This document shows positions 5,051 through 26,615 of a stretch of DNA of 32,000 nt, one piece after another. Position numbers and translations under genes: made by a program. Below the pieces are notes generated by a model. That model searched no databases. It saw only the letters and a program-made list of their open reading frames with translations, and was not told where the DNA came from. Origin of the DNA: Sinorhizobium meliloti (lineage in GTDB: Bacteria; Pseudomonadota; Alphaproteobacteria; Rhizobiales; Rhizobiaceae); assembly GCF_017876815.1 (NCBI RefSeq), contig NZ_JAGIOS010000003.1, positions 1,170,001 through 1,202,000 of the forward strand. The letters are read 5' to 3'. Numbering within the stretch: the first letter of the stretch is position 1; each line of letters begins with the position of its first letter.

Positions 5051-5316
5051 ACACAACACGGACCAGTTGCCGGTCGGCGGCCCGCTTGCGGAGTCGAAGC
5101 GCCATGGACGTGCTGCGCCGCAGCTATTAGACTCCTTCGGATCATACGCGGAAGCAATGGTTACCGCTGGCGGCCTGCTGGTCCCTCGCGCTATCCTCAG
5201 CATCCGCAAGGTCACGTCGACCATGATCCCAGGACTGACTGCGGCGGCCGTGTTACTCGCGTCGATCAGGTGAGTGAACAAGTCGCGGCTAGCTCAACCA
5301 CGCTGCTGGAGGATTG

Positions 5317-6366
5317 ATGAACACTCTTGCTCCCCGTCTCACGGACCTCGCTCACGGTGGCGGTTGCGGCTGCAAACTCGCGCCCTCCGTTCTACAGCAG
5401 CTTCTTGCCACTCAACCGGCTGCCCGACCTTTTGCCCAGCTCCTCGTCGGCAACGACATGGCCGATGATGCCGCCGTATGGCAGGTGGACGACAACACCT
5501 GCGTGATTGCCACCACCGATTTCTTCATGCCGATCGTCGACGATCCGCGAGACTTCGGGCGGATCGCCGCGACCAATGCTATTTCCGATGTTTATGCCAT
5601 GGGTGGAAAGCCGATCCTGGCATTGGCGATCGTCGGAATGCCGATCAACAAGCTCGATTCGACAACGATCGCGAAGATTCTCGAGGGCGGCGCTTCGATC
5701 TGCGCCGAGGCGGGCATTCCCGTCGCCGGCGGCCATTCCATCGATTCCGTCGAGCCGATTTACGGCCTCGCCGTCATCGGCCTCTGTCACCCGAGCGAGG
5801 TTCGCCGCAATGGCGGCGTAAAAGCCGGAGACGCGCTCATCCTGACCAAGGGGATTGGCGTCGGCATCTATTCGGCAGCAATTAAGAAGAACGCGCTGCC
5901 GGCCGGCTGTTACGAGGAAATGATCGGCTCCACGACGCTGCTCAACCGCATCGGCGCGGACCTCGCCGCCGATCCCGATGTCCATGCGATGACCGATGTC
6001 ACCGGTTTCGGAGTCCTCGGACACGGACTTGAGATGGCCCGTGCGTCTCAGCTTTCCCTCACCCTGAGCCTTCCCGCGATTCCCTTCTTGTCACAAGCTT
6101 ACATGCTTGCCGAACAGGGTTTCATCACGGGTGCGTCGGGGCGCAACTGGGCAAGCTACGGCGCCGACGTCGTGCTTCCCGACGACCTCCCGGACTGGCA
6201 GCGACTGCTGCTTGCCGACCCGCAGACCTCGGGCGGTCTGCTGGTCGCATGTGCGCCGGAAAAGGCTGGCGCATTGGTCGAGAGTATCCGCCTCGCGGGT
6301 TACCCGCTTGCGGGCATTGTCGGAACCGCGGAAGCAGGCGCGGCTCAGATCAACGTGATTTCCTGA
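5317..6366 (+). CDS. selD: Selenide, water dikinase (selenophosphate synthetase), Cys-type
   Basis: The N-terminal [16 protein letters not shown] motif is the SelD glycine-rich loop, with Cys rather than Sec. The body is PurM/AIR-synthase-like. GGAGGA lies just upstream of the ATG at 5317; the ORF track begins at the TTG at 5314. Confidence 0.9.
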
Positions 6367-7979: not shown

Positions 7980-8002
7980 GGGCCAGGCGACGTCCGAAAA
8001 CG

Positions 8003-8032
8003 AAGCCGCAGGAAGATCGATCACTGCGGCTT
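8003..8032. terminator. Hairpin between convergent genes (candidate terminator, mainly for the minus-strand gene)
   Basis: 9-bp inverted repeat AAGCCGCAG (8003..8011) / CTGCGGCTT (8024..8032) with a 12-nt loop. On the minus strand it is followed by CGUUUUCGG. It overlaps the stop codon of the 8021..8404 gene. Confidence 0.3.
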
Positions 8033-8404
8033 GATCTCCTCGATCGTTAGCCGCAATCCATCGGCGTTGAACAAATCCCCCTCCCTGATCAGGGAACGAT
8101 CCTCGTTGAGTTTGAAAACCAGCGAAGCGAGCCTCGACTTCGCCTCCCCGTCCTCCACTAGGCCTTCGCGGCCAGCCCGGTAGAAGACGGCGCCCGACCA
8201 GTCGACGCCGGCGCCGCGGAAAAGCCGCACCATGTCCGGCCAGCGCAATTCGTCCCCGACAACGTGAAGATAGGCTGAGCGCAGCAGATCGACACTGGTG
8301 TCGTTGATCCGGAGCAGCACGAACAGCATGGTGAACGAGCCGACGTCCCTGTAAATCGAGACCACCCAGTCGTCAAAATCGGTCCCATGCGTTTCGGCGG
8401 TCAC
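8021..8404 (-). CDS. Hypothetical 127-aa protein directly downstream of tRNA-Sec
   Basis: The listed ORF 8021..8503 runs into the tRNA. A GTG at 8404 is preceded by GGAGA with a 6-nt spacer, and I take that as the start. No family recognised. Confidence 0.5.
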   Translation of the reverse strand: MTAETHGTDFDDWVVSIYRDVGSFTMLFVLLRINDTSVDLLRSAYLHVVGDELRWPDMVRLFRGAGVDWSGAVFYRAGREGLVEDGEAKSRLASLVFKLNEDRSLIREGDLFNADGLRLTIEEIKPQ

Positions 8405-8418
8405 GAAGGGTCTCCTGA

Positions 8419-8514
8419 TGGCGGAAGAGAATGGGAGTCGAACCCACCCAAGACAGCCTCGCTGCCCCACCCGGATTTGAAGTCCGGACATGCCACCGGG
8501 CATGATTCTCTTCC
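8419..8514 (-). tRNA. selC: tRNA-Sec (anticodon UCA), 96 nt including CCA
   Basis: Minus-strand sequence GGAAGAGAATCATGCCCGGTGGCATGTCCGGACTTCAAATCCGGGTGGGGCAGCGAGGCTGTCTTGGGTGGGTTCGACTCCCATTCTCTTCCGCCA. It has an 8-bp acceptor stem (GGAAGAGA/TCTCTTCC) and a 6-bp D stem (CATGCC/GGCATG) with a 4-nt loop. The 6-bp anticodon stem carries the loop CTTCAAA. There is a long variable arm and a 5-bp T stem with loop TTCGACT, giving the bacterial 8/5 Sec architecture. Confidence 0.93.
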
Positions 8515-8582
8515 AGGCGTCGAATTTGTTGCCATTTCACCGGAGACAATCTTTGCAAACGCGAGCGATTGCTGCCGCTTTG

Positions 8583-8830
8583 CTACCCTTTGCCATCACT
8601 CCTGTCCACTACAGCACGACTGATCATGTCGTCAATCTGCGCTGCGGCATGGGCCTGTATCCCGGGCATCACATGCGAGTACAGGTCGAGCGTAATGCCG
8701 ATCTTCGAATGTGAAAGACGCTCACTCGCGATCTTTGGATGGACGCCGCCGGCCAGCAACTGCGTTGCATGGGTGTGGCGCAAGTCGTGGAAGCGCATCC
8801 GCGGGTGGGTCCACTGGGTCGCCACTCGAA
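8583..8830 (-). pseudogene. Tyrosine recombinase (phage-type integrase), C-terminal fragment only
   Basis: The tail of ORF 8583..9050 reads RFHDLRHTHATQLLAGGVHPKIASERLSHSKIGITLDLYSHV, which covers the HxLRH, LGH-like and catalytic Tyr region. Upstream residues of the ORF do not look integrase-like, so about three quarters of the gene is missing. Confidence 0.7.
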
Positions 8831-9179
8831 AGTGACAGCTCCAATCTTGTCTACGCTCGGCGGCTTGCCTAAGACCTTTGTCGTTGATGAGCTGGTCTAA
8901 GGTCCGGCAAGCACATGTCGGGCGTGTAATTGGAGCTGCAGCTGGTCGGCCCGCTGCAGCTCTGTTTGTTCCTACACACCCGCCGCGATGTCTCTCTGCA
9001 ATCTGAACTCTCGGCCACTCGCTTTGCGGGGCTGCCTCCGCATTTGTCACTCAACATCATCTGGCAACGGTAAGTCCGCCATCGCTCACCGCACAAAATA
9101 CCTCTTCCTATAAACAAAAGACGGAACCGGGCTCTGATCTGCGCGTTCGGAGCAAACATCATCGTGCGAGGAGGCGGAC

Positions 9180-9572
9180 ATGAAACCGGCGACAATATTG
9201 CTTGCCGATGATGAAGCGCTGCTCCTTTTGGATTACGAGGCTGCCCTTGCCGAGGCGGGGTTCGTCGTTGTGGCGGTAGCCAGCGGAGGGAAGGCGATAG
9301 AGGTTTTGAGGTCCGCAGACTCCGAAATAGCAGGGGTGGTAACCGATATTCGGTTTTTTGGACTTCCCGACGGTTGGAGCGTCGCACGTGTTGCCCGTGA
9401 GATTGATCCTGATATGCCGGTCGTCTACGTCACCGGACATGGCGCTCTCGAGTGGCCCTCAAGGGGTGTCGCGAACAGCATCTTGCTCGAAAAGCCCTTC
9501 GCTCTCGCACAACTGGTGACGGCCGTATCCCAGCTGCTCAACGCACCCCGTGCTCCTCAGTGTGGCGCCTGA
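9180..9572 (+). CDS. Stand-alone response-regulator receiver (CheY-like) domain protein
   Basis: 130 aa with strong GAGGAGG 5 nt upstream. Acidic pocket LLADDE, candidate phospho-acceptor in VVTDIRF, conserved T (VYVTGH) and K (LEKPF). No output domain and no cognate kinase in the window. Confidence 0.8.
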   Translation: MKPATILLADDEALLLLDYEAALAEAGFVVVAVASGGKAIEVLRSADSEIAGVVTDIRFFGLPDGWSVARVAREIDPDMPVVYVTGHGALEWPSRGVANSILLEKPFALAQLVTAVSQLLNAPRAPQCGA

Positions 9573-9641
9573 TCCGCAGCCCCGGAGCTAGCACAGATTA
9601 TTCCCAGTCAGTTCTGGCGCAAATGGACAATTCCTGGCTCT

Positions 9642-9854
9642 CTAGGCCGCCGCTCTGAGCATTTCGCGCAAGCTGTCCTTGTTCCTGACGCCCCTTTGAC
9701 AAAGCTCTATTAGCCTAGCTGCCAGAACGGTCGCCTCAGGGCAATCATAGGTCATTCTTCTGGCTTTGATCTCCTCGTCGAACAGGCTCTGCAGCAATTT
9801 GATATCGCTCGGAGTGAGAATCCTAGGATCGATTGCATGGAACTGAGAGGTCAT
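9642..9854 (-). CDS. Hypothetical 70-aa protein
   Basis: Internal ATG at 9854 of ORF 9642..10076, preceded by GGAGA about 8 nt upstream. The upstream part of the long ORF looks non-coding. Sequence MTSQFHAIDPRILTPSDIKLLQSLF... has weak resemblance to the 11104..11391 product. Confidence 0.45.
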   Translation of the reverse strand: MTSQFHAIDPRILTPSDIKLLQSLFDEEIKARRMTYDCPEATVLAARLIELCQRGVRNKDSLREMLRAAA

Positions 9855-10026
9855 TGGCCGATCTCCTCTCTGGGGGCGTAATTGCGGAAACTCCGCAGGG
9901 CGCCCCGGGTAAATTCGGCAGTGCAACGAGCATTGTAGACCGAAGAATGGCGATTGCGAGTCGCGAAAATTCACGGCACGGCTGATAAGCAGTGATCCGA
10001 TCAACATCTCGTGCGTTATTGGCTTC

Positions 10027-10950
10027 ATGGCCAAAGCACCTTCAAAGAAGCCATCCTCAGAGCCGTCTGATCCCATGCCGGCGCGTGTCTATCCCTGCCT
10101 TGCGACGCTCGTCGATAAGCCGCCGACCGGGCAGGACTGGGCCTACGAGGTGAAGTGGGCCGGCTACCGGCTGGCCGTGCACATCGAGCCCGGCTAGGTG
10201 AGAATTCTCACGCGCGGCGGCTACGACTGGACCGACAGGCTCCCGTCGATTGCTGACGACGCGCGACGGCTCGCCGTGCAGACGGCCATAATCGACGGAG
10301 AGGCTGTCGTGCTCGATGAAAAGCATGCTCCAGCGAGCCTTGGGCCGTCTGCCGTCTATCCTCGAAGCGGGCGCCATCGTCTGCTATGCCTTCGACCTGC
10401 TCTATCTCAACGACGCGACGTTCGCCGGCTGCCGCTGCGGGAGCGCCGGAGACTGCTGCAACCGATCATCGCCAGACAGGAAGCGGCGGTTCGGTGTTCT
10501 GAGGAAGGCGATGCGGGGGCGAAGATTTCCTCCGTGCCGCGTGCGCGCACGGCCTCGAAGGCATGATCGCCAAGCATGTCGAGAAGGCCCATCGTTCCGG
10601 CCGGGGCGAGTGGTGGCGAAAGATCGCCTGCAAAAGTCGAAATAGCTTTGTGGTGATCGGCTTCGAGCCGTCGACTGTGCAGGCCATCTCGGTCGGCTTG
10701 TGCTCGCCGCCGGAAGGGCGGAGCTCTGGTTTATGTCGGCGGCTGATTACCGGCTGGTCGAACCAACTGTCGCGCGAGCTGCGTAACCTGCTCGAAGGAA
10801 TGGTGACGAAAACGCCAGCGTTGGCCCTGAGGCGGATAGGCGCCGTCTTCGTGGAGCCGGTGCTCGTCGCAAAAGTCGAGTATCGGGCCTGGACCGATGA
10901 CGGAAATTGCAAGCATGCGTCCTTTAAGGGGAGAAGGCCGCGAGAGGATG
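10027..10950 (+). pseudogene. ATP-dependent DNA ligase (LigD/Lig-type adenylation + OB domains), disrupted
   Basis: Recognisable ligase segments are spread over three frames. They read MAKAPSKK...WAYEVKWAGYRLAVHIEPG, then an in-frame TAG at 10195..10197, then VRILTRGGYDWTDRLPSIADDARRLAVQTAIIDGEAVVLDE. These are followed by IVCYAFDLLYLN (+1 frame), LPLRERRRLLQPII (frame 0), and EDFLRAACAHGLEGMIAKHVEKAHRSGRGEWWRKI, FVVIGFEP and LVAKVEYRAWTDDGNCKHASFKG (+2 frame). The adenylation motif KxDG reads KWAG. Confidence 0.8.
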
Positions 10951-11103
10951 GCCCCCTCTTTTCGGGATGGGCTAGATCTTGTGACAACCTAGAGGGCGTT
11001 GCCAACCGTAAGCCGAAGGCGCAAGGTCCAACCTTCAGTAGAAATGTCACGGGCGCTGCTGCTTAAGGGCTAAAAGCCTTGGCCCCCTTTGAAGGAGCAC
11101 GCA

Positions 11104-11391
11104 ATGTCTTCCAACGTATCCATCATGTCACCTTCGGACCTGCAATTCATCAGGTCAGTTTTGGGCGAAGCCGGCTATAACGCCAAACTTCTCGTTGACG
11201 ATCCTCGATCTTTTGAAACGGCCGAATTGCTCGTAACTAAGTTGTTCCTGGCGGGTGAAGACTCCCGACCGGGCCTGGCGGCGAAGCTAGAGTGTCAGTT
11301 GGGCAAGGCTGGCAGGTACAGACGGCCTCCCGGGTCGTCGCTGGCGCGGTATGCAATCCAAGGTCTTCCAAGCGAGCTACAATTTTCATAA
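11104..11391 (+). CDS. Hypothetical 95-aa protein
   Basis: GAAGGAG lies 6 nt upstream of the ATG at 11104. Sequence MSSNVSIMSPSDLQFIRSVLGEAG... No family recognised. Confidence 0.45.
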   Translation: MSSNVSIMSPSDLQFIRSVLGEAGYNAKLLVDDPRSFETAELLVTKLFLAGEDSRPGLAAKLECQLGKAGRYRRPPGSSLARYAIQGLPSELQFS

Positions 11392-11562
11392 GCACGACGA
11401 TGCCCGGAACGATCGTAGCCCGGTTTGCAAGTTGTAGAACAGCCCAAGAATGCGCAACTCGCGGTTTCCAATTCACGAAGCGTTCCGCGCTTTATCGTGT
11501 CGTTGTTAGGACCGATTGGAAACCACATTTCGCTCCACCCCTTCGTAGAACCGCCGCACCGC

Positions 11563-11853
11563 TCATTCCTTTCCATCCAACTCAATCTTCAGCGTTCTGA
11601 TGATGTCGGCCGCGTCCAGCATGACGTCTCTGGTCTCCGCGGGAGATAGGTCACGGGCGCGTGACGAGGCCAACTGGAGATCAATCACAACGTCTCGGGC
11701 GCGGTGGCTGGCAGCAATGCTAGCCTGCCTGCGCATATCACGGATCGTGTCAACCGAACGATCCAGCAGCCGGCTGATCTCATAGGGCGTAAGTCTTTCG
11801 ACCTCGTTCGCGGCTCTGATCAGTTCGGCAATGAATGCGGTCGTGAGGCTCAT
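11563..11853 (-). CDS. Hypothetical 96-aa protein
   Basis: The ATG at 11853 (MSLTTAFIAELIRAANEVERL...) overlaps the TGA of the upstream ORF in an ATGA arrangement, suggesting translational coupling. The protein looks helical and charged. Confidence 0.45.
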   Translation of the reverse strand: MSLTTAFIAELIRAANEVERLTPYEISRLLDRSVDTIRDMRRQASIAASHRARDVVIDLQLASSRARDLSPAETRDVMLDAADIIRTLKIELDGKE

Positions 11854-12170
11854 GGTCTTCTGACGCCGGCCCCATGCGGAGCGTTTCGAGCGGCTGTTTT
11901 CTCCGCCATCTTCGCTCGGAATTTCTCTCCCAAGCGCGGTACAGCATCCACTCCGAGATTCATTACTCGGTCCAGGTCCTCCCGATACCAGAATTTCCGC
12001 GTGGCGCTTTCCAATACGCATGGCTCCGGATAGGCGGTTCCTACGGGCTCGAGGAAGTCCTCGACGTGCTTTTCGCTGACGCAGCCCGCCGCCATTTCTG
12101 CCGTCATCCGCGGCGGCCAACTACTCGGCGGTACAATGGCTGCGCGATGCTTTCTATTCGAGATAGCCAT
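11850..12170 (-). CDS. Hypothetical protein, possibly excisionase/AlpA-like DNA-binding protein
   Basis: MAISNRKHRAAIVPPSSWPPRMTAEMAAGCVSEKHVEDFLEPVGTAYPEPCVLESATRKFWYREDLDRVMN resembles the short HTH proteins (...R.W.REDLD...) found at the ends of integrative elements. The start is uncertain (ORF track 11850..12332) and the family assignment is from memory only. Confidence 0.35.
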   Translation of the reverse strand: MAISNRKHRAAIVPPSSWPPRMTAEMAAGCVSEKHVEDFLEPVGTAYPEPCVLESATRKFWYREDLDRVMNLGVDAVPRLGEKFRAKMAEKTAARNAPHGAGVRRP

Positions 12171-12374
12171 CAAAGCACCGGGGACTTCGGTCGATGGGCG
12201 CTTAAGTTGCGCATTGCCATATGCCCCGCCTTCCTTAGATTTCATCTGGGCGGCCGTGCCGGCCACGTGCGAGCTCGCCTTGATGAACCCTCGCTCCTTC
12301 CAATTTCTTCTGGCAGGGACGCAACCTCGCACATGCCTTTACGGATCAGACCTTCTAAGTATTGAAAGGGATGT

Positions 12375-14375
12375 TCAAGAGCCGGCGCGATAGAATTTGA
12401 AGTCCGGACGCCCCACCGGGGACGAGTCTCTTCCCTCATCTGCCTCAGGAACGTGCCCTTCGTAAAGATCGAGCCTGTGCGGGTTAACCCGGCGCACGTC
12501 GCCATGCCGGAGCGTCACTCCCTGACGATCGAAGAATTCCAGGATCTCGATCGCCACCTTTCTACCGTTGTTGACACGGTCGCGGAAGAGACCTGCGGAA
12601 AATTCACCCCGCTCGGCATTGGCCGCGACTTGCCTGATGATTGCGACCATTTCCGCTGTCGTCTGACGGGTGAAGAAATGGTCATGCCGAATCTGGTCGA
12701 CGCGGCCGAGCCGTGCACAAAGTTTGAGGATGCGGCGTATCTCTCGCTCGTCTACGCCCAGCGTTTCGGCGAAATCGCGGACTCGAGGCGGACGGAATCT
12801 CTCCTCGCCTTCCAGATGCGGAAGGATTCGTGCATAGAGCTCCTCCTCCTTCTCGCTCAACCGGACCTCGTGACCCGGCAATCGGACGAAGGCGCCTTCG
12901 AGCACCAGGCGCCCGCCCGTCTGTTCGGTCCTAAGCGCAACCAGAAAGGCCGGCGGAGGAAGTCGTGGCGTGACCTGCAGCCGAAGGCGCTCGCGACCGA
13001 TCCCCTGCAGATCGGGGTTCTCCACATGAAAGGCGCTCAATACGCGCTGGACCTCGTCGGAAAATGCGACTCGCTGGCGCTTCGACAGCGCATGGCGCAC
13101 CGCCAGGCCCTCGATGAGTTCGGCCGAGGCAAACATGAGCGCGTTCTGCAGTTCCGGCTCGGACAGGGCCCGGTCGCGTGCAAAGACGTCAAGATCGACA
13201 AGAAATGGCGGAACATCCAGCAATGCCGCAAGCGCTTCGCCAGCATGGGACAGAGATGCGGCTTTCAAGAAGCTCAGCCGCTGGGGAGAGCGCCGCTTGC
13301 GCAGGGGCGCCCGCAGATCCAGGAGCCGTCCTCCACCGATCGTGCGCCGGGCTGAAACGTCGCGCAGTATGAACCGGTCGCCGACAGCAGCCGCGATCGG
13401 ACGGTCGAGCACGAGTTGAACCCGCCGCCGCTCGCCCGGCAACAGCGGTCCCTCGAGCGGCACGATACGAACACCGGTCTCGGCGCTCGCGTGGTGAAAG
13501 CGGGCCGAAAACCATTCCCCGATCGGCTTCGTCTCACTTTCAAGCACAGAAAGATCCGCGTCGAGCCTGTCGCTCGGCGCGTGCAGATGGGGATCGACCA
13601 CCATGTCGCCTCGGGTGATTGCGTTCTTCGAGATCCCCTCGCCCGCAAGGTTGAGTGCACAGCGTTGCCCGGCAAAGCCGCGCTCGGCCCTCTGGTTCTG
13701 AGCATGTATGGAACGTACGCGCGCAGCGCGACCCGCTGGCGAGACCGTCACCTGGTCGCCCACGCCGACGGACCCTGAAAGCACGGTTCCAGTGACCACG
13801 GTTCCGGCGCCCGAGAGCGTGAAGCTTCGATCGACGGCGAGCCGGAAACGGCCACCGGCAGTCGATGCCACGGTCGCACGCTCGGCAGCCGCCAGGCGTG
13901 CCTTCAACAATTCAATCCCCTGCCCCGCCGCCGCAGAGACGGGAAGTATCTCCGCATCGCGGAGGCTCGTCGACGAAAGCACCGCTCCTATTTCATCCGT
14001 CAGGCTCTCGAGGCGGTCAGGATCGGCAAGGTCTGCTTTTGTGATCGCGACCAGTCCGCGGCTGACGCCGAGCAGATCGAGGATCGCGAGATGTTCGAGC
14101 GTCTGGGGTTTGATGCCATCGTCTGCCGCAACGACCAGCATGGCATAGTCGATGCCGCCCGCGCCGGCGAGCATGGTATGAATGAAGCGCTCGTGACCGG
14201 GGACGTCGACAAATCCGGTAACTGCGTCCTTTGCAAACCGGGCATAGGCAAAGCCGAGATCGATGGTGATGCCGCGCGCCTTTTCTTCCTTGAGGCGATC
14301 GGTGTCGACACCGGTCAGTGCCTTGACGAGCGTCGTCTTGCCATGATCGATATGCCCGGCCGTGCCGACGATCAT
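12375..14375 (-). CDS. selB: Selenocysteine-specific translation elongation factor
   Basis: GTPase motifs [17 protein letters not shown] and TKADL, EF-Tu-like domains II/III, and a long C-terminal winged-helix extension (666 aa). The last ~20 codons are read from the tRNA-Sec relic and island junction. Confidence 0.92.
12395..12434 (-). repeat. Relic 5' half of a second tRNA-Sec (att-like partial copy)
   Basis: The minus strand GGAAGAGACTCGTCCCCGGTGGGGCGTCCGGACTTCAAAT aligns without gaps to nt 1-40 of the intact selC (34/40 identical). Identity ends immediately after the anticodon loop. The following sequence (TCTATCGC) cannot form the 3' anticodon stem. Confidence 0.8.
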
Positions 14376-15166
14376 GGCGCCCGCCTTGAAAGCGGCTCTT
14401 GCGCCCGACGTTCCGCTTCCTGGATCTCCGCCGGCGAAAGGCTGTCACGAACCGGTCCCATGAAGGGCTTTGCCAGGGTGCTGCCGCCTTCCGTCGCCCG
14501 GATCAGCCAGACCAAGGCAGTCACACCATTGCGTATCGTGCCCGCCCCCATATGGCAGGCCGCTCCCAGCATGGCCTGGGCGTCTGCGTCGCCCCTCTCT
14601 GCAGCCTTCAGCCACCAGTAGACGGCCTTTTGCGCATCGCGTTCGACACCGAGTGCGTTGTGGTGGAGCATGCCGAGCCGCGTCATCGAGGACGCGATGC
14701 CGGCCTCGGCGGCACATTCCGCCCAGCGTCGCGCCTCGAGCGGGTCGGCCGTCATGATCTCGCCTTCCAGCAGCAGCCAGCTCAACATGTCCTGGGCCGG
14801 CGCGTCGCCCTTTTCAGCGGCGCGTCGATAATATTCGGCTGCGATGCCGTAGTCGGCATCGGTGCCGGCGAGCCCTTGCATGTGCAGGGCGGCATAGTTG
14901 CGTTGCCCGACGGGATCCCCGGCTTCGGCCGCCAGGCGCAGCCATTTGCACGCCAGTTCTCGATTCTCCGGCACCCCGAGCCCTTCTGCGAAGCAGGCGC
15001 CGATATTGTTCTGCGCCCGCGCGACGCCGGCACGCGCCAGAGGCTCCCAGATGCGCAGCGCCGACCCGTAGTCGCCGGCTTGGGCGCGTGCCAGGGCCTC
15101 GGCCATCGGATCGGCCACAGGCGCCGTCTGGGGCTTATTGCCTCGAAGGCGTTCAAGCCACCGCAT
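14372..15166 (-). CDS. Sel1-like repeat (SLR/TPR-like) protein, cytoplasmic, embedded between selA and selB
   Basis: About six SLR units ([47 protein letters not shown]..., [24 protein letters not shown]..., [24 protein letters not shown]..., [25 protein letters not shown]...). No signal peptide. The ATG at 15166 overlaps the selA 3' end by 14 nt, and its stop overlaps the selB ATG (ATGA at 14372..14375). The longer track ORF (to 15325) would overlap selA extensively. Confidence 0.8.
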
Positions 15167-16553
15167 CGCCGCTACCCTCGGACAGGGTTTTGAGGAATTC
15201 CGCCTCATCGGACAGACAGCGCAGGTCCAGAACCAGCGCACCATCCCGCAGGCGCCCCAGGATCGGGCGGGACAGAGACCGGAACAGAGCTGCGAGCGCT
15301 TCGAGTGCGCTCCCGCTCGACCCAACGATCCTCAGGCCGGCGCTCGGGATCGTGTCTACGGGAAGCGCCCCGGAGCCTATCTGGCTCGAACAGCTGCAGA
15401 CCTCGACAGCGTAACCGCTCGGCGCCAGCATCGCGCCGACCTGCGGCGCGAGCCGCTCCGCCTGTGCCCGCACTTCCGCTTGCACGCGGGACAGCATGAA
15501 AAGTGTCGGCAGGCGCGAAGCCAGCCGATCCGGATCGCGATAGAGCTTCAAGGTAGCAGCCGTCGCCGCGATACGGATCTTGTCGACACGCAGCGCCCGC
15601 TTCAGCGGATTGCGGTTGATCTCGGCGATCAGGTCCCTGCGCCCGACGATGAAACCCGCCTGCGGACCGCCCAGCAGCTTGTCGCCGGAAAAGGTGACCA
15701 GATCGGCTCCTTCGGCGACTGCCTCTCGCACCGTCGGCTCCCTGCCGAGACCATAACGCGACAGGTCGACCAGGCTGCCCGAACCGAGATCGTTGAGAAG
15801 CACCACACCTCTTTCATGGGCGATTGCCGCAAGCTCGGCACCCGGGACCTCCGCGGTGAAGCCCTCGATCCTGTAATTCGACGTATGGACCTTGAGGATC
15901 AAAGCCGTCTCAGGCCCGATCGCCTTGACGTAGTCCTTCGCGTGGGTGCGGTTGGTCGTGCCCACTTCGACCAGATCGACGCCGGCGCGCTCCATGATGT
16001 CCGGCATGCGGAAAGCGCCGCCGATCTCGATCAATTCACCCCGCGAAACGATCGCCTGACGCCCGGCACCGACCGAGTTGAGAGCGATCAGGACAGCCGC
16101 GGCATTGTTGTTGACGACGGTGGCATCCTCCGCTCCCGTCAGCTCGCACAGCAGTTCCCGCAAATGGCTGTCGCGTTCGCCGCGCCCACCGGAATCGAGA
16201 TCGAATTCAAGCGCGGCCGCTTCGCGCATTGCATCGACGGCGGCATCGACCGCCTCCTGCGCAAGCAGCGCCCGGCCGAGATTGGTATGAAGCACCGTCC
16301 CCGTCAGATTGAACAGCGGGCGAAGGTTCGAGCGGCTGCGGTCATCGAGCCGGCTCAGCAGAGCGGCAACAATGCCATCCTTGCCTGGCAGCGCCCCACC
16401 GCTCCGCACGGCAAGGCGGACTTCGCCCAGTACTTTGCGCAGTTCGTCCGTCACCACGGCGCGGCCATGCTGCTCCACAAGCGGCGACACGGCCGCCGCG
16501 TTCAGCATCTGGTCGACGGAGGGCAAGGCACGAAGATCGACAGGTCCCGACAT
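15153..16553 (-). CDS. selA: L-seryl-tRNA(Sec) selenium transferase
   Basis: 466 aa with the PLP-lysine context [13 protein letters not shown]. The N-terminal tRNA-binding region is LPSVDQMLN. The start lies 4 nt after the fdhE stop. Confidence 0.92.
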
Positions 16554-16557
16554 TGGA

Positions 16558-17478
16558 TCAATAGCCCATCAGGAACGGGTCAAAGCCCGCCCGCTTGTAT
16601 TCCGTGTCCTTCATCAACAGGTCGAGCCCGAGGCTCGCAACATCATCGGCGACGACGTCGAGCGAAGGGTTCTTGTTCTGGTAGAGGATCTTCATCCAGC
16701 TGTTGCAGGTGTCGCAGACTTCCGCCTTGACCGTCGCCTCTTCGTCTCCCGTCTCGACGGCCTGGTAGCCGATGCCCTTCGTGGAACCGCAGGCGAGACA
16801 TTTGACCCGAACCTCATTCCACATCGTGGCGCAGCAGGAACATGAGGCATAGCGCGCGCCCTCGGCACCATGAAAGCCGATGACCATGGATGCGACCGGC
16901 CTGCCGCCGCAGGCGGGACAGACCCCTACCCGGATCGGCACGAGCCTGCTGCCGTCGAGACCGGCAGCGAGGCGCGCCGCCTGGATTTGCATTGCGGCAG
17001 CAACGTAAAGGTGGTGAGCGAGGCTCTCGACGGGCAGGTCGTCAGCCATGACGTTGCCGATCATCCAGGTCAGCATTTCCTCATCCGCCGTCCGGACCTG
17101 TGCAAGCGCTTCTGCGGCGGCAGCCGGCTTCTCCAGGGCTTCAGCCTTCTCAAAAAATTGCTGCAACACTTCGCGGCAATCCGGCGACCCCCCCATCGCT
17201 GCGCGATCGATGGGGGGCATGGCATTCGCACGCGCACGCTCAACCCGATCGGCCGGGACCGGCTCCGGCGGCGGCAATGCGGATACGAGCTCGCTCTGGA
17301 TTCGCGTGATCCCCGCCAGGAAATTGAGATAGGGAGCGAGGTGGCTGCCTTGGGCGAGTGCCTCGAAGCGACTGGCGCGATCGTTGAAGAGGCGTGCCAA
17401 ATTCGGCTTCAGGACAAACGGTGCCTTGGGAACGCCGCCGATCACCGATGGATCGGGCTGTACAGGGGATACGGACAT
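16558..17478 (-). CDS. fdhE: Formate dehydrogenase accessory protein FdhE
   Basis: Starts at the ATG at 17478 ([10 protein letters not shown]...) with GAGG upstream. Four Cys pairs are present: CPACGG, CSCC, CLACGS, CDTC. The 516-aa track ORF is an artefactual 5' extension over fdoI. Confidence 0.88.
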
Positions 17479-17516
17479 TTCACCTCGCGGGCCGACCGGC
17501 CACAGCTCGTTTCCGG

Positions 17517-18203
17517 TTATTCTGCAGGATCGATCCGGCCGCGTCCAGCCAGTTCCTTGAGCCACTTGCGATGGTGCCGCCACGCCCAGCCACCGGTGAC
17601 CGAGCCCTTCGTCATCGCGCGGAACGTCCCGCGGGTCCAGAAGGCCGCATAGACATGAACGATGAAGACGCAGATGATCAGCACCGCCGCCACGGCATGG
17701 GCGAGCACCGCAAAGCGCTTCGTCTCGATCGACGTATAGCTGTAGAAGTACTGATCCCAGATGATGACGCCGGTTATGATCAACGCGACGATCAGCAAGG
17801 CCATTGCCCAGAAGATCACCTTCTGGCCGGCATTGTACTTGCCCATTTCCGGCAAGCGGTCCTCGTGCCCGCCGATCACGTCGCGAATGCCCGTGAACCA
17901 GCCCATGTCCGCTCTGGTGAAGAGGTTGGCCTTCCAGAGCTGGAAGAAGAAAATGTAGAAACTGAAGAAAAGCACCACGCCGATCCACGGGTGCAGCATG
18001 CGCGTGTTCTGCCCCCCACCGAACAGGCCGGTCAGGAAAAACAGGGACGGGTGGAACATTGCAAGGCCGGAAAGCGCCAGCAGGATCAGGCTGGAGGCCG
18101 TGATCCAATGATTAACGCGCTTGCCCGGCCCATAGCGGTCGACTGTGACCGGCGGTCCGCGATGGATGGCATCTTCCGGTTCAAGATCGCTGGCCTTTGT
18201 CAT
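17517..18203 (-). CDS. fdoI: Formate dehydrogenase-N/O type, cytochrome b556 gamma subunit
   Basis: Four predicted TM helices with conserved His residues ([23 protein letters not shown]). The ATG at 18203 is preceded by GGGAGGA and overlaps the fdoH 3' end by 23 nt. Confidence 0.85.
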
Positions 18204-19173
18204 CAGGCGTCCTCCCTGCGGCTCCGGCGCTATCGACGAGCCTTTCCGCACTCTCTTCGTCTTCCGGCTGCACACGATTGGCCCGGCCGAAGACGCCGTG
18301 GAGAATTGCCCCGGCGGCCACGAGACCCATTGCGGCGAGACCTGTGTATTTGGTCACACCCTTCCATGCCTGGACCACGGCGGAAATCTTCGGATCGTCG
18401 GGCAGATCGGAGTAGATGTGCGGCTTGTCGTTGTGATGCAGCACATACATCACATGCGTGCCGCCTACGCCCGGCGGATCGTAAAGGCCTGCATTCGTAT
18501 AACCGCGGGATTTGAGATCGGCGATGCGGTGTTCCGCATGCTTCTTCATATCCTCCTTCGTGCCGAACACGATCGCGTGGGTCGGACAGGCCTTGGCACA
18601 GGCCGGTCCCTGGCCGACGGCGACCCGATCGGAACAGAGGGTGCATTTGTAGGCGCGGTGATCGACTTTCGAGATGCGCGGAATGTTGAAGGGACAGCCC
18701 TTTATGCAATAGCCGCAGCCAATGCAGTTCTCGTGAACGAAATCCACGATGCCGTTCGAATACTGGACGATTGCGCCCGGCGCCGGGCAGGCTTTCAGGC
18801 ACCCCGGATCGGCGCAGTGCATGCAGCCGTCCTTGCGGATGAGCCATTCGAGATTGTCGGTCTCGGGATTGACCCACTCGGTAAAGCGCATGAGCGTGAA
18901 CATGTCCTCGGTGAGGTCATGGGGGTTGGTATAGTAGCCGACGTTTTCGCCGATCCCCGGATGCGTATCGTTCCACTCGACGCACGCAGACTGGCAGGCC
19001 TTGCAGCCGATGCACTTTGAGACGTCGATCAGCTTGGCGACGGGCGTGAGCTGCCGCTCGGGCGGCGGCAGCTCGGTGGTTGCCGAGCGGCGTACGAGAT
19101 CCCGCTCGGTAAGGTTGCTTTCCATCGGCTGGACCGGCGGATTGCTGACGGCGGTGCGAGGACTGTCCATCAT
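18181..19173 (-). CDS. fdoH: Formate dehydrogenase-N/O type, iron-sulfur beta subunit
   Basis: Four ferredoxin-type clusters: [58 protein letters not shown]. There is a C-terminal membrane anchor. The ATG overlaps the fdoG TGA (ATGA). Confidence 0.92.
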
Positions 19174-22100
19174 ACTCTAGCCTCCTCGGGCGCCGTCGAT
19201 GATTCGATATTGACCAGGAATGCTTTGTATTCCGGCGTTTCGATATTGGCGTCACCGACGAAAGGCGCGAGCGAGTTGGGGCCGAGGCCCTTTTTCGCCG
19301 AGCCGGTGAACCCCCAGTGAAGCGGAATGCCCACCACATGGACCGGCTTGCCGTCGCACATCAGCGGCCGGATGCGCTTGGTCACCACCGCCTTCGCCTT
19401 GACCGAACCACGCTTCGACCACACCCGGACCCAGCCGCCGTTTTCGATATTCTTCTCCTCTGCCAGTTCCTCGGAGATCTCGACGAAGAATTCCGGCTGA
19501 AGCGCGGAATTCACGCGGTTATGCTTGGTCCAGTAGTGGAAGTGTTCCGTCAGCCGGTAGGAAGTAGCCGCGTAAGGGAACTCGTCCGACAGCCCCATCT
19601 GCGCCACGTCCGTCTGAAAGACGCGGCTGACCGGGTTGCCCCGCATCTTCGGATTGAAGACGTTGGCGACGGGGGATTCGAAAGGCTCCATATGGGCCGG
19701 GAACGGCCCGTCCCGCATCAAACCGCGTGAAAACAGGCGTGCAGTCCCCTCCTGGTTCATGATGAACGGGCCGATTTCGTCCGGCTTTGCCGTAGGAGCA
19801 ATATCGGGCACATCGTAGCCCGCCCACTTCGTGCCATCCCACTCGAGCAGCTTACGTGAGGGATCCCACGGCTTGCCCTGCAAATCGGCCGAAGCACGAT
19901 TGTAGAGCGTGCGGCGATTAAGCGGCCAGGCGAATGACCAGCCGAGATAAGCGCCAGTGTCGTCCGGATCGTGGTTGTCGCGGCGGGCCATATTGTTGCC
20001 CTGCTCGTTGAAGTTGCCGGAATAGATCCAGCAACCGCACATGGTCGAACCGTCGTCCCTGAGTTGCGAGAAGTTCAGGATCTGCTTGCCGGCCGCGACC
20101 TGCACCTTCATCGGGTTGGCAGGATCCATGAGGTCCGTCAGTGCCCGACCGTTGATTTCCTTCGCCAGCTCCTCCGGCGTAGGTTCGTTCGGATCGGCAT
20201 AGTCCCATGACAAGTTCAGGATCGGATCGGGGAACGCGCCACCCTCGTTGCGATACATCTCCTTCATCCTGAGGAATATCTGGGCGACGATGTAAGTGTC
20301 GTGCTTTGCTTCGCCGGGGGGTGTTCCACCTGCCCAGTGCCACTGCAACCATCGGCCCGAGTTTGTCAGCGAGCCCTCTTCCTCCGCAAAGCAGGTCGTG
20401 GGCAGCTGGAACACCTCGGTCTGGATGGATGCGGTATCGACAGGGTTGAAGTCGCCATGGTTTTCCCAGAACCGTGCGGTCTCTGTGTCGAGCGGGTCCA
20501 TCGTGACGAGCCACTTCAGGTTCGACAGCGCCTTGGTGTTCTTGTCCCGGTTCGGGAAGGCAAGAAGTGGGTTGAAGCCCTGGCAGATGTAGCCATTGAC
20601 CTTGCCGGCATACATCAGCTCGAACACGCGAAGCACATCATAGGCCGGCACGTCGAGCTTGGAGAGGTAATTGAAGGCCCAGTCGTTGTCGATCCGGGCG
20701 GCATCCCCCCACATGGCCTTCTGGAAGGAGACCATGAACTTCCTGTAGTTCTGCCAGTAACTTGTCTGCCCTGGACGCAATGGTTTGAACTGGCGTGTCG
20801 ACATATAGGTCGTGAAATCCACGTCCTTTTCCGTCGGCATCGTCAGATACCCCGTGAGCAGATGCGACATTAGACCGAGGTCAGTCAGTCCCTGGATGTT
20901 GGAGTGGCCGCGAAGCGCGTTCATGCCGCCGCCGCGCACGCCGATATTGCCGAGGATGAGCTGCAGCATGGCCATGGCGCGGATGTTTTGCGAACCGCTG
21001 GAATGCTGGGTCCAGCCGAGCGCATACATCGACGTCATCGTCTTTGTCGGAGACGAGCATTCCGAGATCATCTCGGCAACCTTGAGGAACTTGTCCTTGG
21101 GCGTGCCGCAGATCCGTTCCACCATTTCCGGCGTATAGGGGGCGAGGTGCGCCTTCAGCAGATTCCAGACACAACGCGGGTGCTGGAGCGCCGGGTCAGT
21201 CACGACGAAGCCGTCGTCGCCGAGGACATAGTCCCACGTCGACTTGTCATAGTCGCGCTTTTCCGCGTCGTAGCCCGTGAAGAGGCCGTCCTGGTAGCCG
21301 AAGCCGTCCTTGACGAGATAGGAGGCGTTGGTGAACGCCTTCATATAGTCCCACTGCACCTTGTCGTTGTCGATGCAATACTTCATCACCCCGTTGAGGA
21401 AGGCGATGTCGGTTCCCTGACGGATGGGAGCGTAATAGTCGGATACGGACGCGGTGCGGGTATAGCGCGGATCGACCACGATCAGCTTCGCGCCCCGCGT
21501 GGCCTTCGCCTCGGTCACCCATTTGAAGCCGCAGGGATGCGCTTCGGCCGCATTGCCGCCCATGACGACTACGAGGTCGGTATTTTTGATGTCGGTCCAG
21601 GAGTTGGTCATCGCTCCACGGCCAAATGTTGGGCCCAAACTGGACACCGTAGGGCCGTGTCAGACGCGCGCCTGATTATCGAAACCGACTATTCCCAGAG
21701 CCTTGGCGAATTTGAAGGTCGCCCAAGCCGTTTCATTGGTGGTCGCCGACGCGGCGAGCATGCCGACCGTCGTCCAGCGATTGACCGGAACGCCTGCGGC
21801 ATTCGCCGCGACGAAATTGGCGTCGCGGTCATCCTTCATCAACCGTGCGATGCGGTCGAAAGCATCCTCCCAGGAGATACGCTCGAACTTATCCGAGCCC
21901 GGCTTGCGGTGCATCGGATACTGGAGACGGGTCGGGGACTTCACGAAGTCCTTGAGCGCCGCCCCCTTGGGACAGAGCGTACCGCGGTTGGTCGGATGAT
22001 CCGCATCGCCTTCGATGTGAATGATGTCGGCAGCCTCACCCTTGCGGAGGTCGCCCTTCGAATAGATGATGACGCCACAGGCGACGGAACAGTAGGGACA

Positions 22101-22259
22101 GGTGTTGCGCGTTTCGGTGGTCGTCGTCAGCTTGTGAGGCCGGACATGCGCGACGACCGCCGCCTCAGCCTCACCAAACCCCATCGCACCGAGTGACGTT
22201 GCCGCAGCCCCTGCTCCAGCCAGCTTCAAAAAGCTGCGCCGTGAGAGGTCTACATTCAT
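19170..22259 (-). CDS. fdoG: Formate dehydrogenase-N/O type, molybdopterin alpha subunit, selenocysteine-containing (in-frame UGA at 21660..21662)
   Basis: Track ORFs 21660..22274 and 19170..21647 share one frame and are joined by a single TGA. The junction reads [30 protein letters not shown], the conserved FdnG/FdoG active-site context. Tat leader [20 protein letters not shown]; the ATG at 22259 has GGAGG 8 nt upstream. The N-terminal 4Fe-4S motif is CPYCSVACG. Confidence 0.93.
21617..21659 (-). promoter_or_regulatory. Candidate SECIS stem-loop immediately 3' of the fdoG UGA
   Basis: The mRNA reads UGA-CACGGCCCUACGGUGUCCAGUUUGGGCCCAACAUUUGGCCGUG. The outer 7-bp stem is CACGGCC/GGCCGUG. An alternative inner hairpin pairs GGCCC/GGGCC around a small apical stem, ACGG-UGU-CC(A)GU. 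This was folded by eye only. Confidence 0.5.
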
Positions 22260-22417
22260 GGGAACAGCCTCCATCTCGTGTCAGCAACAATGGAGTCTAT
22301 GCCTCGACACCAGCAAGTCAAGGTGGAGTGATATCGTCAAAGAAAGCCGCCGCAGCGAGCGGAGGCGGGCATCCAGAGAGAGGACGCGCCTGTGTTGCGC
22401 GTCAGTTGCCGAATAAT

Positions 22418-22433
22418 GTTCCCCGCGGGGAAT
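22418..22433. promoter_or_regulatory. parS-like 16-bp palindrome, copy 1 (GTTCCCCGCGGGGAAT, 15/16)
   Basis: Matches the repABC centromere consensus GTTNNCNGCNGNNAAC except for the last base. It lies 9 bp from copy 2. Confidence 0.6.
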
Positions 22434-22442
22434 TCGGAGAGT

Positions 22443-22458
22443 GTTCCCCGCGGGGAAC
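22443..22458. promoter_or_regulatory. parS-like 16-bp palindrome, copy 2 (GTTCCCCGCGGGGAAC)
   Basis: Perfect palindrome, identical to copies 3-6; fits GTTNNCNGCNGNNAAC. Confidence 0.75.
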
Positions 22459-22761
22459 ATTGGAACCGTGGGACCAGTTCCGGTCCTAGCCGAGTGGTGG
22501 GTTGCCGCGCTCAGGAGTGGCGGAAGTTATCAGCACGATAGCTTCCATAAGGCCGTAAAATGTGTTTTTCTTCAATAACTTATAGCAGCCTCAGAAAACA
22601 CTCGTCATGCCCGTCCGACCAGCATCACAAACCTTACCTTAAGTCGGCCGGCTCCCGCAAACTGTAATTTCTCGGCCACTAATGCCACGGCTTTTGGAGC
22701 TGTCAGCGTGACCATTGCGCATCGCCGCAGTCGGATCTGCCGCTGTCTCGCTGTTTAGCTC

Positions 22762-22787
22762 GAAAGCCGAAAGCCGAAAGCCGAAGG
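22762..22787. repeat. Short tandem heptamer repeat (GAAAGCC x3 plus a partial unit)
   Basis: The sequence cgaaagccgaaagccgaaagccgaaggc was read directly in non-coding DNA between fdoG and repA. Confidence 0.6.
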
Positions 22788-23102
22788 CATATGTCTGGCC
22801 CTGCTCTAGCTCGCCGAGCGACTTGAGAGACAAGCTACGATTGGAATGATCAAAGTAGGTTCACCGCCGGTTCGCCGCCACGGATACACGCACCCAGCCG
22901 TGCGGCCTGACCACCCATGACGCCCTGCCCTCCTCTGTCAGCGGTCCGAGCGACCAGCGTCCTTCGCAAAGGCATGGGGTTCTTCGGGGGCCGATTAGAG
23001 GCAATCCTTCACGGGAAGGCTTCTACAGCAAAAGCCGGCTGCCGGGCCAATCGGCGCCGAGCGTGACTCTCGTCTTGCGGCGTTGTCGAGATCTCCTCCA
23101 AA

Positions 23103-24256: not shown

Positions 24257-25462
24257 GTGACGGAAACGATCACAGGGATTCTTTCGATGACGCGACACCT
24301 AAGCAGCCTCGCTTTCATGGAGAATTTTTCCAGTAAGCTCGAAATGGCACTGAACAACTTGAGCATGGCGCAGTTCCCCCCGAACGCGCGTCGCACAATG
24401 CGCAAGTTCACCTCTACCGAAGTTGCCACCCTGCTGGGCGTAACCGAGGCCTATATCCGCCAGGTTGCCGCCAAGGAACAGGGCCCTGAGCCCGAAATCG
24501 CCAACGGCCGGCGCTTCTACACGCTCGAGCAGGTTCTTGAACTACGTATGGCTCTTGCGGCAAACGGCCGGAAGAAATGGATGAATCCCCGCCGGACAGG
24601 CGATGAGCAATGCCAGATCGTTGCGGTCACCAACTTCAAGGGCGGCTCCAGCAAGACCTCTACCACAATCCATCTCGGTCACTATCTGGCACTCAAGGGC
24701 TATCGCGTGCTGGCGGTCGATCTCGACCCCCAAGCATCTCTCACCGCGCTCCATGGTAGCCTGCCGGAATTCGATTACCGTGGCGGTGATACACTTTTCT
24801 CAGCCATTCGTTTCGACGATCCCGTCCCGACGAAATCCATCATCCACAAGACCCACATCGTTGGTTTCGACGTCATCTGTGCCGGCCTCGAACTGACCGA
24901 GTTCGAGACGGCCGTCGCACTCGAGATGCGGCGGTCAGCAGGAACCGGTTTCTTGCTTCGCGTTTCTCAAGCTCTGGAGCAGGTCGCCGATGACTACGAC
25001 TTCGTCCTTATGGACTCGGCTCCGTCGCTGAACTTCCTGACACTTTCGTCGCTGACCGCCGCGACTGGGGTCATCATCCCGGTTCCGGCACATATGCTGG
25101 ATGTGGACTCGACCGCAAAGTTTTTGGAGCTTGCCGGGTCGTACATGCAGATCCTGAATGAGGTGGGGACCGCCGCTCAATGGGACTTCGCCAAGTTCCT
25201 GATCACAAAGTTCGAGCCGAACGATCATCCGCAAGCGAATATGTCCGCGCTGATGAGACAGGTGTTCGGCGAGGATCTGCTCCTCAACTCCGTCATCAAG
25301 TCGACCGCGGTGGCCGATGCTCTGACGTGGAAGCAGAGCCTTTACGAGGTTCAGAGGTCCCGATTTTCGGCGCCGAAAACCTACGACCGCGCCATCGAGT
25401 CGATCAATGCTGCCAATGCTGAACTCGAGGGCCTCTTCTGGAAGGCATGGGGGAGAGAATGA
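24257..25462 (+). CDS. repA: Plasmid partitioning ATPase RepA (ParA family)
   Basis: Deviant Walker A KGGSSKTSTT, VLAVDLDPQASLT, and an N-terminal HTH-like segment. The start is uncertain (GTG at 24257 or ATG at 24287). The stop overlaps the repB ATG. Confidence 0.9.
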   Translation: MTETITGILSMTRHLSSLAFMENFSSKLEMALNNLSMAQFPPNARRTMRKFTSTEVATLLGVTEAYIRQVAAKEQGPEPEIANGRRFYTLEQVLELRMALAANGRKKWMNPRRTGDEQCQIVAVTNFKGGSSKTSTTIHLGHYLALKGYRVLAVDLDPQASLTALHGSLPEFDYRGGDTLFSAIRFDDPVPTKSIIHKTHIVGFDVICAGLELTEFETAVALEMRRSAGTGFLLRVSQALEQVADDYDFVLMDSAPSLNFLTLSSLTAATGVIIPVPAHMLDVDSTAKFLELAGSYMQILNEVGTAAQWDFAKFLITKFEPNDHPQANMSALMRQVFGEDLLLNSVIKSTAVADALTWKQSLYEVQRSRFSAPKTYDRAIESINAANAELEGLFWKAWGRE

Positions 25463-26460: not shown

Positions 26461-26465
26461 CCCGC

Positions 26466-26520: not shown

Positions 26521-26615
26521 AAGATCGAGAATCGCATTTCCACGAATCACAGTCAAGAGTCCTTGGCACCGTTTTTGGTGAGCTGCTTTCTTTTGCCTAA
26601 TCGAAGGTGAAGGAA

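Follow-up and report, generated by a model that had tools for sequence, protein, structure and literature searches.

Why does the selenocysteine (Sec) operon of Sinorhizobium meliloti contain a gene for a Sel1-like repeat (SLR) protein, and what might this protein do there? The gene lies between selA and selB in a stretch of 32,000 nucleotides (nt), hereafter the window (NCBI RefSeq assembly GCF_017876815.1, contig NZ_JAGIOS010000003.1, positions 1,170,001 to 1,202,000 of the forward strand); unless a locus or a record is named, all coordinates below are positions in this window. The bacterial Sec pathway has been regarded as complete with SelA, SelB, SelC and SelD since the 1990s. An earlier note on this DNA proposed that the extra protein bridges SelA, Sec-tRNA(Sec) and SelB, or else that it links Sec insertion to the maturation of the formate dehydrogenase subunit FdoG. 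By following the gene through related genomes and modelling its product, we arrive at a tentative answer, which we hold with somewhat less than even confidence: the SLR protein would be a cytoplasmic, non-enzymatic adaptor of the SelA/SelB module, belonging to a single alphaproteobacterial lineage of fdoGHI-fdhE-selA-X-selB(selC) operons, in which X is the SLR gene.

A gene held between selA and selB

The SLR gene (14372..15166, minus strand), read as an open reading frame (ORF) with its translation of 264 amino acids (aa) plus stop, begins with an ATG at 15166-15164 and ends with a TGA at 14374-14372. On one side, it overlaps the 3' end of selA (15153..16553, minus; Pfam SelA, E = 1e-171) by 14 nt (15153..15166, minus), such that the selA TGA falls within SLR codons 4-5. 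In fact, the same letters are read as ..GAT GCG GTG GCT TGA by selA, whose ORF ends at 15153, and as ATG CGG TGG CTT GAA by the SLR gene. On the other side, its stop codon and the start of selB share the 4 nt of an ATGA (14372..14375, minus), the selB ATG being at 14375-14373. The selB gene (12375..14375, minus) encodes the Sec-specific elongation factor, 666 aa long with a short C-terminal extension (Pfam GTP_EFTU, Beta-barrel_SelB and SelB winged-helix). A Shine-Dalgarno-like GAGGG, found by direct reading inside selA (15175..15179, minus), lies 8 nt upstream of the SLR ATG. The tight overlaps reported by the earlier note are thus there in the sequence, and on both sides of the gene they are kept across orders: an identical 14-nt overlap with selA recurs in 68/82 orthologous loci, with a 4-nt overlap in 6 more, and the ATGA shared with selB recurs in 78/83. 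The SLR protein would therefore seem to come from the same polycistronic message as SelA and SelB, and co-production by translational coupling fits the retained overlaps.

The 4.3-kb stretch around the gene is 100% identical to S. meliloti pSymA-type megaplasmids (SM11, NC_017327, for example), and in the identical region of CP050559 the gene is annotated as 'sel1 repeat family protein'. Since the flanking SMa0011 is selA and SMa0015 is selB (PMC4053727), it should be SMa0013 in the nomenclature of strain 1021. The mechanical ORF runs further upstream, to a TTG at 15325. Alignment with orthologues supports the 264-aa start as the probable one, not a 290-aa start, because M-x-W-L-D/E forms residues 1-5 in most orthologous loci. 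The 290-aa form, which starts inside selA (15167-15325, minus), is annotated in some S. meliloti records (P0001); its extra N-terminus is without conservation and could pass for a signal peptide. On plasmid CP130055.1, the gene matches in two unannotated pieces, possibly through a frameshift.

How far does this arrangement extend? A word-seeded protein search (E up to 1e-10) returned 670 matches. The 120 best are 55-84% identical to the window protein and full-length, at about 255-280 aa (save for a few gene calls that run longer or are cut short), and the carriers named among them are Rhizobiaceae, Aureimonas, Aquabacter, Methylocella, Terrihabitans, Acetobacteraceae (Roseomonas, Roseococcus) and Inquilinus. 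In a scan of one genome per GTDB species, 541 stretches encode a relative of the SLR protein, and we counted synteny in the best 80 of these 541 loci, which were fetched and had the window proteins mapped onto them. The earlier note had set beforehand that a lack of sel linkage among orthologues would tell against it; the linkage found is decisive, with selA, X and selB following one another on one strand in 79/80 loci, usually with fdoGHI-fdhE before them. In every orthologue locus examined, selB comes after the SLR gene, and selA comes before it in all but one (L071), where only an internally deleted remnant of selA is left. The plasmid matches examined, the metagenome examples and a long-linker variant (see below) have the same order, and among these genome loci and plasmid matches we found no SLR orthologue outside a sel context. 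Because the order is so constant and the overlap lengths recur in most loci, the gene arrangement is far beyond chance.

The exceptional locus belongs to Mycoplana sp. BE70. A selA remnant of about 340 nt joins the N- and C-terminal ends of the gene (L071 7641-7980), while the SLR gene, selB and the nested selC look intact, FdoG is unusually divergent (58%) and the Sec cluster may be in decay. We considered this locus as a case of an SLR gene that stays with selB after the loss of selA, and rejected it because the cluster is degenerate.

SMa0013-type SLR proteins form a discrete, cleanly bounded family. An exhaustive representative search was swamped by giant multi-repeat SLR proteins (155,325 clusters, E up to 0.001), and the boundary was thus taken from a tblastn search of a plasmid database. 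Among the matches listed, those of at least 55% identity are linked to selA/selB, and the next are generic SLR proteins of 40% or less; it is this fall in identity that delimits the family. Five plasmid loci of 60-80% identity that carry the gene were fetched, and all five read selA-X-selB. The window protein has the motifs of the family in the 83-locus and other alignments, namely R50-A-Q-x-N, R89-N, AQDMLSW-x-LLE, M-T-R163-x-G, H169 and an N-terminal M-x-W-L-D/E-R-L. Two carrier metagenome-assembled genomes (MAGs) are labelled 'beta proteobacterium' (L047) and 'Acidimicrobiaceae' (L079). Their SLR N-termini (MRWL-E/D-ALAKKARPDDD) match that of a Xanthobacteraceae MAG (L077), and the labels are probably binning or naming errors and not a spread beyond Alphaproteobacteria.

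Is the ORF selected for its product, or does it only space two coupled genes? In the 63 loci where none of the seven proteins is missing, SLR proteins are on average 65.0% identical in pairwise comparison, next to 64.5% for SelB, 68.8% for SelA, 55.6% for FdhE, 67.3% for FdoI, 76.9% for FdoH and 79.7% for FdoG. Its Nei-Gojobori ratio of nonsynonymous to synonymous substitution rates (dN/dS) is 0.11-0.17 against six relatives, indistinguishable from those of SelA, SelB and FdhE. Thus, the SLR ORF is selected as a protein, under purifying selection as strong as that on SelA/SelB, and not as a coupling spacer.

Predicted architecture of the SLR protein

The protein consists of Sel1 repeats, matched by Pfam PF08238 (Sel1) over 5 stretches (E = 2e-39, 133.1 bits against a cut-off of 30.7). 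It looks cytoplasmic, as the earlier note said: in its 264 aa there is no signal peptide, hydrophobic segment or transmembrane segment, the maximum of a 19-residue Kyte-Doolittle window being 0.96. An AlphaFold2 model based on a 63-sequence alignment (mean predicted local distance difference test, pLDDT, 93; predicted template-modelling score, pTM, 0.85) has fourteen helices in seven pairs, which make five to six SLR units plus caps. At the N-terminus, it has a short helix at residues 4-7 (low confidence) and a disordered linker at 9-19. When the model is submitted to Foldseek, the top matches are LpnE, LceB, c5321 and HcpC, the first three with a probability of 1.00 and template-modelling (TM) scores of 0.77-0.82. 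Foldseek and a PDB profile search return SLR proteins only (LpnE, LceB, Oxalobacter SLRs, c5321, HcpC, SEL1L, AlgK, MotX and, at low similarity, the SLR domain of eEF2 kinase), and in the profile and PDB searches there was no homology to SelA, SelB, SelC or SelD.

In SLR and tetratricopeptide-repeat solenoids, the A helices line a concave groove. These are the conserved helices of the SLR protein, with an entropy of 0.67 bits against 1.21 bits in the B helices, and with 20 invariant polar residues against 7. The invariant A-helix residues include R50, Q52, N54, R89, N90, Q125, D126, S129, W130, E134, T162, R163, H169 and Q197. The protein as a whole is acidic (median isoelectric point, pI, 5.1), and the solenoid body has a net charge of about -9.

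The N-terminus is of opposite charge. Codons 1-11 (15134..15166, minus) encode a cationic amphipathic peptide, recognised from position-specific composition in 83 orthologues, with the pattern M-x-W-L-D/E-R-L/F-x-R-R/K, a median hydrophobic moment of 0.71 and a net charge of +3. The membrane-targeting helices of MinD and MinE resemble it. Dual coding with the end of selA puts a partial constraint on residues 1-5, but the hydrophobic and basic pattern persists where the overlap is different (MSLFSRFMRRP or MNLLNRLFGRP, for example). A variable Pro/Ala/acidic linker follows the peptide. In P0095, P0099 (L090 6001-7173) and P0206, an acidic Pro/Ala/Glu-rich insertion of roughly 70-140 residues comes between peptide and solenoid, with synteny unchanged, including the 14-nt overlap with selA. 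Overall, the prediction is of a binding domain to which a short conserved peptide is attached by a flexible tether.

The solved bacterial SLR proteins (Legionella LpnE and LceB, E. coli c5321/EsiB-type, Helicobacter HcpC and those of Oxalobacter formigenes) share PF08238 and the right-handed alpha/alpha solenoid with the SMa0013 protein, and LpnE and LceB match the model with a Foldseek E of 1e-13 or better, a TM score of about 0.8 and a root-mean-square deviation of 2-2.5 Å. Identity, however, is only 20-32%. Those proteins are secreted, periplasmic or surface-exposed and have signal peptides; most act on hosts, and the Hcp repeats are disulfide-bridged. In contrast, the SMa0013 protein lacks both a signal peptide and paired cysteines, bears invariant motifs of its own (AQDMLSWMLLEGE, SMTRLGM-x-H) and is locked in a cytoplasmic, translation-related operon. 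Membership in the secreted or periplasmic subgroup (Hcp, ExoR, AlgK, MotX, MerG type) is thus unlikely for a protein that lacks a signal peptide, keeps only Cys58 and scores below every NCBIfam cut-off concerned (MerG 63/350, AlgK 36/700, MotX 27/330, ExoR 22/450).

Could Cys58 have a role in selenium handling? It is the sole conserved cysteine, it is conserved at >=95% together with His169, and the N-terminal peptide is basic, which might suggest a carrier that binds selenide or selenophosphate for SelA, or else a factor that binds tRNA(Sec) or the Sec insertion sequence (SECIS) of the message. Selenium binding and RNA binding are both unlikely, and as an account of the gene we consider this one highly improbable. 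There is no conserved cysteine pair or CxxC/U motif, and Cys58 itself aligns, as judged from the repeats, with a position that belongs to the hydrophobic core in the SLR consensus. For RNA, the strongly acidic body is unfavourable. Only SLR families are matched by the protein, which resembles neither SelD nor rhodanese domains nor YedE/F. An Rfam scan of 8000-23000 detected no SECIS-like element inside the SLR gene, matching only the fdoG SECIS and selC.

Outside bacteria, SLR solenoids are known as adaptors. SEL1L/Hrd3, the adaptor of HRD1 in endoplasmic reticulum (ER)-associated degradation, is such a non-enzymatic solenoid, one that brings partners to a complex of many proteins, and was found with our protein by sequence and by fold. 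It is, however, eukaryotic, ER-lumenal, far larger and membrane-anchored, and with a TM score of only 0.44-0.55 it is a functional analogy and not an orthologue. The SLR domain of eEF2 kinase recruits eEF2. This C-terminal domain (8fo6, 8gm5, 7shq), also matched by Foldseek, thus ties an SLR module to the biology of a translational GTPase, but the match is weak (TM about 0.4, 15-20% identity) and it belongs to a kinase, with no Sec link. Finally, eukaryotes have extra proteins, SECp43 and SBP2, that organise complexes for Sec-tRNA synthesis and delivery beyond the core enzymes; bacteria are not known to require them. Here the likeness is conceptual only: SECp43 and SBP2 are RNA binders of the RNA-recognition-motif and L7Ae types and have no sequence or fold relation to the SLR protein.

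Possible partners of the SLR protein

Which protein might the groove bind? For each two proteins, we correlated the pairwise distances in 57 non-redundant loci, with the other five proteins partialled out. The X-SelB partial correlation is the largest off-diagonal one (0.51), with X-FdhE at 0.27, X-SelA at 0.23, X-FdoG at 0.05 and X-FdoH at -0.24; the positive control, FdoG-FdoH, gave 0.45. To account for the operon and the fold, we propose that translational coupling would yield the SLR protein together with SelA and SelB, and that a Sec-machinery protein, most likely SelB and failing that SelA, would sit in the conserved concave groove. Through the N-terminal peptide on its tether, the SLR protein would touch a second partner, be it the other Sel protein, the ribosome or RNA, or the membrane. 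In this way, it would assist or adjust how Sec-tRNA(Sec) is brought to the one UGA of fdoG. One can go further and envision a scaffold that, as a fifth protein component of the pathway, couples the SelA decamer to SelB and channels Sec-tRNA(Sec) from synthesis to delivery, with the N-terminal peptide perhaps localising the hand-over at the membrane-proximal fdoGHI message. This specific version seems unlikely to us; if true, the bacterial Sec pathway would have its first accessory adaptor.

The groove could also serve the dehydrogenase itself, as in the second proposal of the earlier note. It would then bind nascent or unfolded FdoG (its twin-arginine translocation (Tat) signal peptide, for example) or FdhE, while the N-terminal peptide would anchor the protein at the inner membrane, so that Sec insertion would be linked to cofactor loading and Tat export. 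FdoG does have a classical Tat signal, SRRSFLK, at its N-terminus, the peptide of the SLR protein is cationic and amphipathic, as membrane-targeting helices are, and the distance correlation with FdhE is positive, but those with FdoG and FdoH are nil or negative. The SLR gene is co-directional with fdoGHI-fdhE in most of the 80 loci, yet it always sits between selA and selB and not beside fdoG or fdhE. In fact, L040 and L048, two loci from Rhodospirillales MAGs, have their fdo and fdhE genes beyond selD on the opposite strand, and selA-X-selB is found behind an unrelated cupin gene; the SLR gene therefore travels with selAB and not with the dehydrogenase genes. The Tat/FdoG link thus comes out less well supported than the tie to SelA and SelB, and we judge it rather improbable.

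Another possibility is that the protein restrains SelB instead of assisting it. As a stoichiometric holdase, an anti-factor or a protease adaptor, it could act as a negative regulator or buffer that limits free SelB (or SelA), so that Sec-tRNA(Sec) is not sequestered, which would matter where a nested selC and selB cannot be expressed independently. Its layout of peptide, variable disordered linker and binding domain is like that of tethering adaptors of the SspB type, and the X-SelB correlation is the highest of the matrix. In 70/83 carrier loci, the tRNA-Sec gene lies entirely within the selB ORF, versus 1/5 non-carrier loci, which reproduces Mukai 2021 (PMC8124441) on an independent species set, and the same paper argues that the balance of SelB and tRNA-Sec is an issue in these clusters. 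However, the association with nesting may be plain co-inheritance in one lineage, and the SLR gene is kept both in 11 carrier loci in which selC is apart from selB and in S. meliloti, in which selB holds only a remnant of the tRNA gene. We place such a buffering role on a par with the Tat/FdoG link, as a doubtful alternative.

The remnant in the window (12395..12434, minus) corresponds to the first 40 nt of the tRNA-Sec gene, with 34/40 identity to the intact selC, and lies inside the 3' end of selB, where it is translated as the C-terminal extension of SelB. Intact selC is 3.9 kb away, and the inserted DNA between the two holds, besides an integrase fragment, further broken genes, in agreement with the transposon-disrupted nested selB::selC that Mukai 2021 (PMC8124441) describes. 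The small proteins ORF1 and ORF2 (Mukai's names), which have no Pfam domain, are encoded after selB/selC in 68/79 carrier loci, one or both being present; they are absent from the four-member non-carrier clade introduced below, and 11 carrier loci have neither. In the window, an ORF2 homologue at about 8021-8400 (minus) overlaps the 3' part of selC. Because 11 carrier loci lack each, neither the nested selC nor ORF1/ORF2 is obligatory for the SLR gene. In L090, the locus of one long-linker variant, ORF1 and ORF2 are at 9271-9759 and 9789-10196.

Several observations weigh against an adaptor of SelA/SelB. First, fdoGHI-fdhE-selA-selB clusters without the SLR gene exist in Paracoccus aestuarii, Ensifer adhaerens, Ensifer sp. 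PDNC004 and Shinella sp., and these four group as a single clade when SelA+SelB are placed in a neighbour-joining tree. Second, the gene has been lost from Phyllobacterium zundukense, a loss that must be secondary because this species is nested inside a carrier subclade of the same tree. Third, no SelA/SelB indel or residue patch tracks the presence of the gene: 8 SelA and 2 SelB positions discriminate carriers, all of them explained by one divergent clade, and there is no specific relaxation of constraint. Fourth, the X-SelB distance signal is weak and confounded by gene adjacency and rate class. Fifth, the lineage-specific ORF1/ORF2 could be the true partner of the SLR protein. Finally, two apparent SLR-SelB fusions, P0094 (435 aa, Sel1 + GTP_EFTU; L091 6001-7308) and P0240 (514 aa), were rejected because the reading frame is broken. 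On the contig of P0094, the genes for SelA, SelB and UbiA are split as well, which indicates a frameshifted assembly and leaves no Rosetta-stone evidence.

The SLR-less clusters are otherwise of canonical form. Like that of E. coli, the selA-selB operons of E. adhaerens, Shinella and P. aestuarii have the same flanking genes, fdoGHI-fdhE context and stop/start overlap as in S. meliloti, but nothing between the two genes, which overlap or abut directly (with an ATGA in the Paracoccus and E. adhaerens records), whereas the S. meliloti operon has a third ORF with its 14-nt upstream and 4-nt downstream overlaps. Because these sister clusters lack the gene and couple selA directly to selB, it looks accessory, not core, in the Sec pathway, inasmuch as the SLR-less systems appear intact from their genes. 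By a rough count, roughly three quarters of the plasmids with a SelA at least 60% identical to that of the window carry the SLR gene.

On the P. zundukense plasmid (L086 8300-8460), the SLR gene is cleanly lost, the ATGA overlap is re-created between selA and selB, and selA has a novel 30-aa tail. The SelB of this species has G22N, G151D, V305A and R617H at sites that are invariant in all other loci. Its Sec system may be decaying, which would limit its use as a sign of dispensability.

Might the gene then be a mere passenger, with a function unrelated to Sec decoding, possibly shared with ORF1/ORF2, and kept mainly since its removal would break the coupling of selB? That natural clusters appear intact without it would agree with this, as would the company of ORF1 and/or ORF2 in most carriers and their absence from the four-member clade. 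However, selection on the protein equals that on SelB, no orthologue was seen outside a sel context, and 11 carriers do without both ORFs. Moreover, the Phyllobacterium deletion restored a selA/selB ATGA, so that removal is mechanically easy and yet rare. A passenger is therefore, in our estimate, very unlikely, and an adaptor of SelA and SelB, tentative as it is, remains the reading that we prefer.

Earlier literature and neighbouring genes

The Sec operon here has an extra conserved gene of adaptor type, whose presence in these clusters had already been drawn. Mukai 2021 (PMC8124441, Fig. 3) shows the same gene family in the same clusters, labelled 'Sel1-like' in the figure legend; that paper is about selC nested in selB and offers neither an analysis of the Sel1-like gene nor anything on its distribution statistics, structure or function. 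The gene goes unmentioned in a screen for selenium genes by comparative genomics (PMC5322559) and in a review of 2026 (PMC13188914). Searches of the literature for SMa0013, and for Sel1 or TPR proteins together with selA/selB, gave no functional mention and no expression data for SMa0013, the legend of Mukai 2021 being the only trace, and one match for SMa0013 was rejected since it was actually SMa00130. The starting premise that no SLR component is known in the bacterial Sec pathway thus agrees with the literature searched, in which we found none.

The interest of the gene is that the Sec pathway is textbook knowledge, with four gene products, and that here an extra gene is linked to sel genes in every locus examined and conserved like SelB. 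It would point to a step so far overlooked, in which Sec-tRNA/SelB is handed over, localised or buffered, or else to a lineage-specific answer to the nesting of selC. At the same time, it is restricted to a lineage and evidently dispensable in some relatives, and if it is dispensable, it would exemplify a repeat-protein gene maintained by its insertion into a translationally coupled pair. S. meliloti is genetically tractable, and FdoG appears to be its sole Sec-dependent enzyme; the SLR-less clusters of E. adhaerens and Paracoccus provide natural controls. There may also be some interest for the engineering of selenoprotein expression.

The remaining genes of the cluster agree with the earlier note. 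Directly upstream of selA is fdhE, for a formate dehydrogenase accessory protein (16558..17484, start approximate, minus; Pfam FdhE_N, central and C domains). It is preceded by fdoG-fdoH-fdoI, for a membrane formate dehydrogenase (17517..22274, minus), taken from the ORFs and the annotation of the identical region in CP050559. Within it, the ORF of fdoG spans 22274-19170 (minus) and contains an in-frame UGA, the TGA being read directly at 21660-21662 (minus), and a SECIS at 21607-21665 (minus; Rfam SECIS_3, 81.6 bits). Downstream of selB, selC (tRNA-Sec) is at 8419..8514 (minus; ARAGORN, and Rfam tRNA-Sec at 79.7 bits). The selenophosphate synthetase gene selD lies at 5314..6366 (plus), as annotated in the identical CP050559 sequence and recovered as a tblastn self-match. 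At the other end, about 2 kb from fdoG, the annotation of the identical CP050559 region places the megaplasmid genes repA-repB-repC at about 24257-27821 (plus), and the whole fdo-sel cluster thus adjoins the replication and partition module of pSymA.

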